Origin: Escherichia coli
Lineage (GTDB): Bacteria > Pseudomonadota > Gammaproteobacteria > Enterobacterales > Enterobacteriaceae
NCBI RefSeq assembly: GCF_036507355.1
Contig: NZ_AP027877.1
DNA length: 64,000 nucleotides
Reading direction: 5' to 3' (one strand)
In this document: one piece after another, positions 4,838 through 60,515 of the stretch
Layout: every line of letters starts with the position of its first letter
Numbering within the stretch: position 1 is the stretch's first letter
Notes under the pieces: model-generated
What the model was told of the DNA's origin: nothing
The model's database searches: none
Seen by the model: only the letters and a program-made list of their open reading frames with translations
Made by a program: the position numbers and the translations under genes

Positions 4838-4969
4838 GCCGGATGCGGCGTAAACGCCTTATCCAGCCTACGTTCGGCAACGGTTGTAGGCATGATAAGA
4901 CGCGCAAGCGTCGCATCAGGCATCGTGCACCGATTGCCGGATGCGGCGTAAATGCCTTATCCGGCCTAC
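4838..4969. repeat. REP/BIME cluster: three REP units (4838-4871, 4886-4921 inverted, 4936-4969) in aceA-aceK intergenic
   Basis: Two copies of gccggatgcggcgtaaa(c/t)gccttatcc(a/g)gcctac flank an inverted gtaggcatgataagacgcgcaagcgtcgcatcaggc unit; classic REP palindromes. Confidence 0.85.
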
Positions 4970-10173: not shown

Positions 10174-10207
10174 GAGATTCCCTTCATCATGCAAATAATT
10201 GATATGC

Positions 10208-10240
10208 AAAAAACCCCGGCCTTATGGACCGGGGTTTTTC
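10208..10240 (-). terminator. rrnE operon terminator
   Basis: Minus-strand AAAAACCCCGGTCCATAAGGCCGGGGTTTTTT immediately 3' of 5S rRNA. Confidence 0.75.
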
Positions 10241-10247
10241 TAATTTG

Positions 10248-10367
10248 ATGCCTGGCAGTTCCCTACTCTCGCATGGGGAGACCCCACACTACCATCGGCG
10301 CTACGGCGTTTCACTTCTGAGTTCGGCATGGGGTCAGGTGGGACCACCGCGCTACGGCCGCCAGGCA
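10248..10367 (-). rRNA. rrfE: 5S ribosomal RNA
   Basis: Reverse-complement is the canonical E. coli 5S sequence (TGCCTGGCGGCCGTAGCGCGGTGGTCCCACCTGACCCCATGCCGAACTCAG...CATGCGAGAGTAGGGAACTGCCAGGCAT), 120 nt. Confidence 0.97.
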
Positions 10368-27826: not shown

Positions 27827-27879
27827 GTTCTGCGCTGTTAACGCGTAATTTACATTCAACGCCCCGTTTGTGGGGGCTA

Positions 27880-29954
<2,075 letters not shown>

Positions 29955-33424: not shown

Positions 33425-33790
33425 GACGGAATGTAAGGACGTAAATTTATTCCGAGCCGCTACGGAAGATGAAAAACGCAAGGTTGTTGAAAGCGTTGTG
33501 TTTTTTTATGGTAGTGCCGTCAGCAGGAATGTTGTCCAGGGCGAAAAGCTTCTTCCTCGTTTCGCCCTGCCTTTCTTAAAAATTCCGTAATGCAAAGTCT
33601 GAAGCCATCGCCTGTTGAGCAATGAAAGAGATCTGATTGTAAGAGAGTAAATACTCAACTATGATAGAGACGAAAATAAGAACACATGTTCTCATCTTCC
33701 AGGATGCAGCAGACTGAAGAAATTCAGACATCCCGCAACCTGCGATTATCGCAAGGTCAAGGCAAAGTCCGGTAATGGCGTTCTGAATAC

Positions 33791-33840
33791 CAGAGATAAT
33801 TCTCTGGCGAAACCCACCTTAAGGTGGGTTTTGTTATTTT
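33791..33840 (+). terminator. Tandem hairpins with plus-strand intrinsic-terminator signature at 3' end of thiH-htrC intergenic
   Basis: ccagagataattctctgg hairpin followed by aaacccaccttaaggtgggttttgttatttt (stem plus T-run on plus strand); overlaps htrC stop on the opposite strand. Confidence 0.5.
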
Positions 33841-49998: not shown

Positions 49999-50956
49999 CT
50001 GCACTACGCAGGGATATTTCACCGCCCATCCAGGGTTTTATTATTCCATCCTGCTCAAGCAATAAAGCGCCCTGTTTGTCTATTCCGCGTGAAATGCCAA
50101 ATATTTCTTTATCACCAATGATAAGTTTCACTGGGCGATTAATAAAATTATCCAGCTTTTCCCAGCGCGAAAGATAAGGTGCCAATCCTTCTTGTTCGAA
50201 GAGTTCCAGCGCCGCGCGTAATTCACGTATTAGCATGGCCGCCAACGTATTACGATCGAGATTGATCCCCGCTTCCTGCAGCGTGATCCACCCCTGATTA
50301 ACGACACTCTCTTCAACACGACGCATTGCCATGTTGATCCCGGCTCCAATGACTATTTGCGCCGCATCGCCGGTTTTACCAGTCAGCTCCACAAGAATGC
50401 CTGCCAGCTTGCGATCCTGCAGATAGAGGTCATTAGGCCATTTGACACGAACTTTATCTGCTCCCAGCTTGCGTAATACTTCCGCCATCACGATACCGAT
50501 AACCAGACTTAAACCAATCGCCGCCGCCGGGCCTTGTTCCAGACGCCAGAACATCGACAAATATAAGTTTGCGCCAAAAGGCGAAAACCATTTCCGCCCC
50601 CGGCGACCACGGCCAGCCTGCTGGTATTCTGCAACGCAGGCATCGCCCGATTTAAGCTCTCCGATACGATCAAGAAGGTACTGATTCGTGGAGTCAATAA
50701 CTGGCAGCACGGCTACACTACCGCCATCCAGCTGACCCAATATCTGTTCAGCATTAAGTAACTGGATGGGCTCAGGCAGGCTGTATCCTTTACCCGGAAC
50801 GGTAAAGACATCAACGCCCCAGTCACGCAGTGTCTGAATGTGTTTATTAATAGCCGCCCGGCTCATTCCCAGCGTTTCACCCAACTGCTCGCCAGAGTGA
50901 AATTCACCGTTCGCTAACAGGGCAATCAATTTCAGTGGCACGGTGTTATCCTTCAT
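49991..50956 (-). CDS. birA: Biotin-protein ligase / bio operon repressor (321 aa)
   Basis: ORF translation [79 protein letters not shown]... Confidence 0.95.
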
Positions 50957-51981
50957 GAAATTGTCTCCACTGCGCTCACTTCACCTGATGCACCAATAAA
51001 GCGGACTTCAGGCTCAAGCCAGACATTAAATTTTTCACCCACTTTTTGTCTTACATGGTGTGCCAGTTGCACCACATCTTCGCTTTTTGCATTGTCTTCA
51101 TTAATGAGAACTAACGCCTGTTGACGGTGCACCGCAGCCCCACCCATTTGCATCCCTTTTAGCTGGCACTGATCGATAAGCCAACCTGCTGCCAGTTTTA
51201 CTGAACCATCCGCCTGGGGGTAATTTGGTGCTGTTGGAAATTGTGACAGTAATGCTTTAGCCGTTTCGGCAGATACAACAGGGTTTTTGAAGAAACTACC
51301 GGCATTGCCATTCACTTTTGGATCAGGGAGTTTGGTGGTGCGCATATGACACACCGCATTAAATACTTGCTGTGGCGTTACTGTTGTAGGCTCCAGACGA
51401 GTTAAGTCACCATACGTTAGTACAGGTTGCCACTCTTTTGGCAGACGCAGACCTACGGCTACAATGGCGAAGCGGTCCTGGTATTCATGTTTAAAAATAC
51501 TGTCGCGATAGCCAAAACGGCACTCTTTGGCAGTTAAGCGCACTTGCTTGCCTGTCGCCAGTTCAACACAATCAACATAAGCGCAAACTCGCTGTAATTC
51601 TACGCCATAAGCACCAATATTCTGGATAGGTGATGAGCCGACACAACCAGGAATTAATGCCAGATTTTCCAGACCAGGCATACCTTCCTGCAAAGTGTAT
51701 TTTACCAGGCGATGCCAGTTTTCTCCGGCTCCTACATGTAAATACCACGCATCAGGTTCATCATGAATTTCGATACCTTTGATCCGGTTGATGATCACCG
51801 TGCCGCGATAGTCTTCCAGAAAAAGTACATTACTTCCTTCACCCAGAATAAGAACGGGTTGCCCTTCTGCGGTTGCATGCTGCCAGGCATTGAGTAGTTG
51901 TTGTTCGTCTTCGGCACATACAATGTGCTGAGCATTATGATCAATGCCAAATGTGTTCCAGGGTTTTAAGGAGTGGTTCAT
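50953..51981 (-). CDS. murB: UDP-N-acetylenolpyruvoylglucosamine reductase (342 aa)
   Basis: ORF translation [71 protein letters not shown]...; overlaps birA start by 4 bp. Confidence 0.95.
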
Positions 51982-52069
51982 AGCTGCTTTCCTGATGCAA
52001 AAACGAGGCTAGTTTACCGTATCTGTGGGGGGATGGCTTGTAGTTATGACGACAGGGAGAGTTTGTAGA

Positions 52070-52102
52070 AACGCAAAAAGGCCCAGTCTTCCGACCGGGC
52101 CT
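52070..52102 (-). terminator. Single intrinsic terminator hairpin immediately 3' of rrfB
   Basis: Minus-strand AAATTAAGCAGAAGGCCCGGTCGGAAGACTGGGCCTTTTTGCGTTTCT (stem GGCCCGGTC/GACTGGGCC, T-run); only hairpin in the 134-bp rrfB-murB gap. Confidence 0.75.
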
Positions 52103-52115
52103 TCTGCTTAATTTG

Positions 52116-52235
52116 ATGCCTGGCAGTTCCCTACTCTCGCATGGGGAGACCCCACACTACCATCGGCGCTACGGCGTTTCACTTCTGAGTTCGGCATGGG
52201 ATCAGGTGGGACCACCGCGCTACGGCCGCCAGGCA
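52116..52235 (-). rRNA. rrfB: 5S ribosomal RNA
   Basis: Canonical 5S sequence on minus strand; differs from the rrfE copy at one position (gggatcagg here, ggggtcagg in rrfE). Confidence 0.97.
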
Positions 52236-52328: not shown

Positions 52329-55231
<2,903 letters not shown>

Positions 55232-55585: not shown

Positions 55586-57127
<1,542 letters not shown>

Positions 57128-60149: not shown

Positions 60150-60390
60150 TAAAGCATCCACAATAGAAGAAGGATGCCGCAGGTTTCATCAATATTACGC
60201 GATGATGAGAACCAGATGCGACGTTGGCCGGCAGGTCTTCGGGCTTGGAGGGGTATCTAAGATACTAAGAGATGATGACTTCCCACCGAATGGCAGTGTC
60301 CGCATAACGCAATCATCGCACCTTTCCTTACCGCTGCGCGTCAGCTCCAGATTCGCACTGGATTCCCTATTAACTCACAGGACCGGCAAG
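60150..60390 (-). promoter_or_regulatory. Cobalamin (AdoCbl) riboswitch in btuB leader
   Basis: Minus-strand leader contains the B12-box AAGCCCGAAGACCTGCCGGCC and upstream GGTGCGATGATTGCGTTATGCGGACACTGCCATTCGGTGGGAAGTCATCATC elements ahead of the btuB start. Confidence 0.85.
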
Positions 60391-60515
60391 TGGATGCTAC
60401 AGGTTGTAACAAGTTACTGTCCAGACGTAGCTCACAAATAGGAATTCATCAAGATCTGGACATCTGATGAGCAATCCCTACAATCGCCGCGTACTTTAAT
60501 TTTTCAGGATACATC

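Follow-up and report, generated by a model that had tools for sequence, protein, structure and literature searches.

Organization of the rrnB-murB Interval

The stretch of Escherichia coli DNA analysed here (64,000 nt, referred to as the window) carries two rRNA operons, rrnB and rrnE, both on the minus strand. In rrnB, the 16S gene (55586-57127, minus strand) is followed by the 23S gene (52329-55231, minus) and by the 120-nt 5S gene rrfB (52116-52235, minus), which ends in ...AACTGCCAGGCAT and was delimited by alignment to K-12 rrfB and by Rfam; the RF00001 match covers 52118-52233 with 96.8 bits, and the full 120 nt align with the K-12 gene. Downstream lies murB (50953-51981, minus, 342 codons, ATG at 51981), encoding UDP-N-acetylenolpyruvoylglucosamine reductase and recognized from its translation and from the murB annotation in matching genomes. 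Over the rrnB-murB interval, the window matches E. coli O157:H7 genomes at 99.8%.

The spacer between the 5S end and the murB ATG (51982-52115, minus) is exactly 134 nt long and contains one hairpin by folding, as an earlier note on this DNA had described it. It opens with the 5S 3' trailer CAAATTAA (52108-52115, minus), read from the sequence, where the position of the RNase E site is taken from published work (PMC8144298). The 18-bp sequence AACTGCCAGGCATCAAAT, composed of the 5S 3' end and CAAAT, was found in one copy by a search of the window (52111-52128, minus). The core terminator stem-loop, GGCCCGGTC-GGAA-GACTGGGCC (52080-52101, minus), has 9 bp, one of them a G·U pair, and a GGAA loop; in the minimum free energy structure A/U and G-C pairs prolong the stem into the U-run, giving the extended hairpin GCAGAAGG...CCTTTTTGC (52073-52107, minus). 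The U-rich tract TTTTTGCGTTTCT (52067-52079, minus) is, by alignment, the same as the tail of terminator T2 of K-12 rrnB. The 85 nt upstream of murB (51982-52066, minus) are retained in the short and the long alleles described below and differ from K-12 at 2 positions. Within them lies ATACGGTAAACTAGCC...TTTTTGCATCAGGAAAGC, a block shared throughout Enterobacteriaceae that probably serves as promoter and leader of murB; a consensus promoter scan of the 85 nt found no site.

Several features of the corresponding K-12 region are missing from this spacer. The 5S 3' end was not found a second time in it by a search of the window, where AACTGCCAGRCAT is confined to the 3' ends of the two true 5S genes (starts at 52128 and 10260), so that the mark of a tRNA-linked repeat (TLR) is lacking. 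The dual terminator of the K-12 type is also absent from the spacer, which has one hairpin in 134 nt versus two in 300 nt in K-12, and so is the body of the RrB repeat, the gap in the K-12 alignment spanning it entirely.

Elsewhere in the window, the rrnE 5S gene (about 10248-10365, minus) is followed by a terminator region identical to that of K-12 rrnE (10205-10248, minus), with a single unrelated hairpin, CCCCGGTCCATAAGGCCGGGG, and then TTTTTT. This hairpin begins 14 nt after the 5S gene and about 35 nt before the yjaA ATG (10173). Further Rfam matches in the window are naRNA4 (4889-4966), a TPP riboswitch (27879-27979), sroH (33672-33832), P26 (43168-43229) and a cobalamin riboswitch (60213-60402), and StyR-44 matches both 16S-23S spacers.

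Comparison With the K-12 rrn Operons

In K-12 MG1655, the rrfB-murB spacer measures 300 nt and consists of T1, a second copy of AACTGCCAGGCATCAAAT and T2. The earlier note had given about 300 bp with T1, a partial 5S and T2, and the pairwise alignment that it proposed bears this out: K-12 does not have the 134-bp single-hairpin form, and the window is colinear with it except for a gap of 166-168 bp. As judged from this alignment, the DNA that is present in K-12 and absent in the window is a 168-bp unit made up of T1, rrB and an 18-bp copy of the 5S end. Locus and flanking genes are the same in both, and the 18-bp 5S end that bounds the K-12 cassette on both sides occurs once in the window, which is without the entire unit (T1, RrB body and second 18-bp repeat); the insertion point of rrB would fall directly after position 52116.

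The segment between T1 and T2 in rrnA, rrnB and rrnD corresponds to the tRNA-linked repeats rrA, rrB and rrF (Stenum, 2021; PMC8144298), of which rrB encodes the small RNA RrB. The 18-bp repeat is the hallmark of these elements, the 3' 18 bp of a TLR being a copy of the upstream 5S 3' end. The three repeats are transcribed through T1 read-through and processed to RNAs of about 173 and about 115 nt, which bind Hfq and CsrA, and deletions of the genes give modest phenotypes only (all PMC8144298). In our comparison of the seven K-12 operons, the cassette was found in rrnA, rrnB and rrnD; two copies of AACTGCCAGGCATCAAAT flank the 168-bp rrB unit in rrnB, and the sequence is likewise doubled in rrnA and, as a variant, in rrnD. 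In K-12 rrnG, the 5S gene is directly followed by a T2-type hairpin, which is the short form, rrnE has one unrelated hairpin, and rrnC and rrnH end after tRNAs. The 3' ends of K-12 rrnG and rrnE thus resemble the window rrnB end in that a 5S gene is followed by one intrinsic terminator, but the stems and the unique DNA downstream differ; the K-12 rrnE hairpin itself is found unchanged in the window at 10214-10234. Rfam holds no family covering the K-12 T1-rrB-T2 cassette.

The window hairpin lies at the same position relative to murB as T2 of K-12 rrnB, with which it shares an identical left flank, CAAATTAAGCAGAAGGCC, and an identical right flank plus U-tract, GGCCTTTTTGCGTTTCTACAAACTCT. The stem interior is different, CGGTCGGAAGACTG in the window and ATCCTGACGGAT in K-12, with a 9-bp stem and GGAA loop in the former against an 8-bp stem and TGAC loop in the latter; moreover, the window hairpin follows a true 5S gene, while T2 follows a 5S fragment. 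The stem GGCYCRGTCGRAAGACTGGGCC of T1 in K-12 rrnB and rrnA belongs to the same stem family as the window stem, although T1 has different flanks (CAAATAAAACGAAAGG ... TTTCGTTTTATCTG) and a weaker U-tract. The description of the hairpin as T2-like in its flanks and T1-like in its stem interior, given in the earlier note, is accurate at the level of the sequence.

Termination Before murB

The window terminator begins 15 nt 3' of the 5S end. Its stem has 9 bp, of which 7 are G-C pairs, and a GGAA loop, and the U-tract UUUUUGCGUUUCU, identical to the K-12 T2 tail, starts right after the core stem and gives a tail that reads U5GCGU3CU. The hairpin RNA folds with -26.1 kcal/mol (z = -5.3), and none of 200 dinucleotide shuffles folds as well; for the cores alone, RNAfold gives -18.1 kcal/mol for the window hairpin, -15.8 for T1 and -14.7 for T2. 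The stem is paired in all nine variants compared, with 2 pairs changed on both sides, values that 71 of 500 shuffles reach as well, the statistical support for covariation being weak with so few sequences. In E. whittamii a C-G pair has become U-A; in E. albertii an A-U pair has become G-C, with the G·U of the window as the intermediate. By its anatomy, the window hairpin is a canonical Rho-independent terminator. A simple consensus terminator scan found no site at the hairpin, and the same scan also misses K-12 T2, in both cases because the stem extends into the T-run; since K-12 T2 is experimentally proven, this negative carries no weight.

By analogy with K-12 T2, rrnB transcription in the window would be terminated efficiently before murB. 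The efficiencies reported for the two K-12 terminators, as PMC8144298 summarizes them from Orosz (1991), are 100% for T2 alone and 87% for T1. The earlier note had raised the possibility of more read-through into murB-birA past a single terminator. A leaky hairpin of this kind would couple murB-birA expression to rRNA transcription in the lineage of the window, which is conceivable in that one terminator separates murB from a very strong, antitermination-modified operon. This appears decidedly improbable, the stem being more stable than those of T1 and T2, the U-tract the same as that of T2, T2 alone being summarized in that source as fully efficient, and one hairpin being usual at this junction across the family, as it is in 4 of the 7 K-12 rrn operons. 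Since T2 alone is reported to suffice and a single terminator is the norm at the junction, the window allele would not be expected to let more transcription through into murB-birA. The signals of murB itself should be unaffected, since the 85 nt upstream of it are kept in both alleles. A measurement of read-through into murB was not found in the searchable literature.

Distribution of Short and Long Alleles

The adjacency of rrnB and murB is present in 5,393 of 5,426 complete E. coli genomes. The long form, recognized by the 5S fragment, the distal hairpin and the rrnB-specific tail, was found in 2,521 genomes (46%), mostly at 99-100% identity, which by subtraction leaves about 2,870 (about 53%) with no repeat at rrnB; these counts reflect BLAST coverage thresholds rather than per-genome allele calls, and the percentages refer to the genomes that have been sequenced, a biased sample, rather than to natural populations. 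The survey of the interval across E. coli that the earlier note had suggested thus reveals the short form to be common. Sizing of finer allele classes by 61-62-nt probes, in which megablast requires a 28-nt exact seed, returns classes that overlap: the T2 probe aligns some T1-like alleles at about 86% identity, and some T1-like hairpins sit in long alleles. Owing to this overlap, the split into long and short forms is the only one robust enough to be given. Long alleles are found in K-12 and in many ETEC and STEC strains, and short alleles in O157:H7, O145, CFT073, NC101 and SMS-3-5, which we take to represent phylogroups E, B2 and F.

The exact window allele, probed as a sequence of 62 nt, occurs in about 395 complete genomes, once in each, most of them O157:H7. 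This bears on a possible artefact, namely a repeat collapsed in the one assembly from which the window derives, for which the vicinity of a multi-copy rrn operon might speak. The probability of such an error is negligible: an identical 62-nt sequence at one place per genome in so many independent complete genomes rules out a collapsed repeat, and short forms of one kind or another are spread over about 2,870 genomes.

Outside E. coli, 41 of 79 species show a spacer free of the repeat after a true 5S gene and 6 of 79 have a repeat or a fragment, the other 32 of 79 (E. albertii and 31 others) being unscorable because the contig starts too far downstream. Repeat-free spacers are therefore found in 41 of the 47 informative Enterobacteriaceae species, and in 3 of the 3 informative members of Escherichia other than E. 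coli, i.e., E. whittamii, Escherichia sp. E1V33 and the species of strain E69. An assignment of E. albertii to the short form was withdrawn, since its contig begins after the 5S-end repeat and is informative for the hairpin type only. The searchable literature yielded no account of which strains have or lack rrB; the only mention found, in Brandis et al. (2019; PMC6735719), concerns the insertion of murB-birA-coaA between rrnB and tufB.

Origin of the Window Hairpin

The T1-like stem within T2-like flanks had led to the proposal, in the earlier note, that T1 and T2 of a K-12-like ancestor recombined into a chimeric hairpin and that the intervening DNA was deleted in the process. The stem interior, GTCGGAAGACTGGGCC, is indeed T1-like and both flanks are those of T2, yet the proposal is contradicted by the type of the left flank and by the organization of the locus in strain GF43, and we regard it as scarcely credible. 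A single T1×T2 crossover should keep the left flank of T1, CAAATAAAACGAAAGGCT, at the place where the window has the T2-type sequence. In GF43, the spacer is 302 nt long (134 + 168): after T1, rrB and the 5S fragment come the window hairpin in its exact form and downstream SNPs of the window type; the two flanks differ from those of the window at 1 of 85 and 1 of 225 positions, and strains N3 and 06-00048 match the GF43 junction at 100%. The same hairpin thus stands downstream of an intact T1 and rrB. It also stands directly after the 5S gene of rrnA in 2013C-3264, beside mobB, where K-12 has T1-rrA-T2. Lastly, near-identical single hairpins occupy the same position in E. whittamii, Citrobacter amalonaticus and Kosakonia, and E. 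albertii has a hairpin of the same kind on its contig that starts downstream of the 5S gene.

Because GF43 has both the unit and the exact window hairpin, the hairpin exists independently of the 168-bp indel. All four combinations were found, i.e., short with a T1-like stem (the window), short with the T2 stem (AF56, whose allele is exactly that of K-12 minus the 168-bp unit), long with the T2 stem (K-12) and long with the window hairpin (GF43, N3 and 06-00048). As far as these sequences go, the presence of the 168-bp unit is independent of the hairpin allele at the distal, T2 position. The window hairpin, by its T2 flanks, its T2 distance to murB and its place downstream of T1-rrB in GF43, is an allele of the rrnB distal terminator. 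Over the terminator segment, the window is identical at 45-48 of 51 positions to other short alleles and outgroups, at 42 of 51 to K-12 T2 and at 38 of 52 to T1.

Ancestral State of the Junction

Taken together, the interval is very probably an rrB-less allele of the rrnB 3' end, in which transcription of the operon would meet one intrinsic terminator, T2 by position, whose stem interior is a T1-like variant that is also present at this position in other Escherichia and in other Enterobacteriaceae. Clean gain or loss of the 168-bp unit would come about through gene conversion among rrn operons or through recombination of the 18-bp repeats with each other, whichever allele the distal hairpin has; rrnB transcription would still stop efficiently before murB. 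Most likely, the genus was ancestrally without rrB and the window has kept that state, a reading favoured by the repeat-free outgroups and by the closer similarity of the window segment to short alleles and outgroups.

The opposite polarity is the main alternative. An ancestor of the GF43 type may have lost the 168-bp unit precisely, through recombination or slippage between the 18-bp AACTGCCAGGCATCAAAT repeats; a deletion that gave rise to the window allele, had there been one, would have run between these 5S-end repeats and not between the terminators. Such an ancestral allele does exist in GF43, N3 and 06-00048, its GF43 version differing from the window by a single position in each flank as stated above, and AF56, being K-12 without the unit, indicates that clean indels do occur. 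We nevertheless consider a precise loss unlikely, while taking it more seriously than the other alternatives. The repeat is missing at this locus in all three informative Escherichia outgroups and in most Enterobacteriaceae; the exact short allele is found in about 395 genomes against three matches at 100%, and at most 84 genomes at 99% or more, for the GF43 type; and the GF43 repeat is a mosaic of K-12 rrnB T1 with an rrnD-type body, which suggests that it was acquired by conversion. The arrangement in the window is an ordinary and common polymorphism of a known terminator region, and the element that is missing has already been described.

Copy Number of the rrA/rrB/rrF Repeats

The RrB body was undetectable in 1,480 of the 5,426 genomes (27%) by blastn with word size 11, megablast giving a similar result. 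By blastn, an RrA/B/F body is present in at least one copy in 3,946 genomes, and the number of places per genome ranges from 0 to about 9-10. O157:H7 genomes have a single diverged copy of the cassette, rrF at rrnD. The genome of the window would accordingly make no RrB, and rrF at rrnD would be its only copy of this sRNA family; the clearest consequence of the short allele is one sRNA gene copy fewer.

The RrA/B/F genes have been reported as "well conserved", and variability in rrA/rrB/rrF copy number is not mentioned in the searchable literature, including the paper that described these sRNAs (PMC8144298). A far-reaching proposal would be that the copy number of rrA/rrB/rrF is naturally variable (at least 3 in K-12, 1 in O157:H7 and 0 in about 27% of genomes, including those of the B2 type) and that the T1T2 arrangement of rrnB is a lineage-restricted acquisition; in this form we hold it to be improbable. 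If it were true, and if RrA/B/F tune CsrA or Hfq, or T1-T2 alters read-through into murB-birA, lineages would differ in growth-rate-coupled regulation, and the population would offer natural knock-outs for testing these sRNAs and the long-puzzling dual terminators. The absence of rrA/B/F from about a quarter of sequenced E. coli fits the mild phenotypes of the deletions and provides natural genotypes for tests of function. As for the "rrnB T1T2" terminator of plasmids, it represents one allele, which about 46% of complete E. coli genomes carry at rrnB, and not the species norm, the T2-position hairpin alone being the form of the junction in most Escherichia and Enterobacteriaceae.

Exchange Between rrn Operons and Related Repeats

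The rrnA end of 2013C-3264 implies that rrnA has the same short/long polymorphism as rrnB and that the hairpin allele is shared between operons. A related hairpin of the B2 type occurs at three places per genome among the sampled genomes with an exact copy, and the rrnB end of MJ-T is a mosaic in which a repeat of the rrnH type replaces T1 and the left half of rrB, giving a 273-nt spacer without proximal terminator. These patterns at the 3' ends of rrn operons would fit gene conversion together with clean gain and loss between the 18-bp repeats.

In strain 55989, rrnH carries another 5S-linked repeat, about 139 nt long, between its 5S gene and tRNA-Asp (aspU). This repeat lacks a hairpin of the T1 type and closes with a 5S 3'-end copy of its own; its left part is found in 574 genomes. 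The 5S fragment that follows rrF in rrnD, in K-12 as in O157:H7, has the sequence CTGCCAGACAT, which agrees with the A variant at the 3' end of the upstream rrfF, and the fragments in rrnA and rrnB read CAGGCAT, as in their own 5S genes. The 5S fragments match the 5S gene of their own operon, and the repeat thus tracks the adjacent gene.

Some genomes depart from both the short and the long form. In O103:H2, O45:H2 and other genomes, the matches fall into two pieces over 234 bp with a 5S gene beneath the match, placing the 3' part of a TLR about 110 nt from a window-like hairpin. In Escherichia sp. MOD1-EC7003, the rrn-murB spacer is rearranged: a terminator tail of the rrnA/rrnG type, a REP-like element and the first part of an ORF resembling a transposase (MDEKQLQALANELAKNLK...) precede the conserved block upstream of murB. 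Some Kosakonia, as well as Enterobacter sp. JUb54, have two hairpin terminators between 5S and murB with neither a 5S fragment nor a TLR between them, indicating that dual terminators also exist without the repeat.
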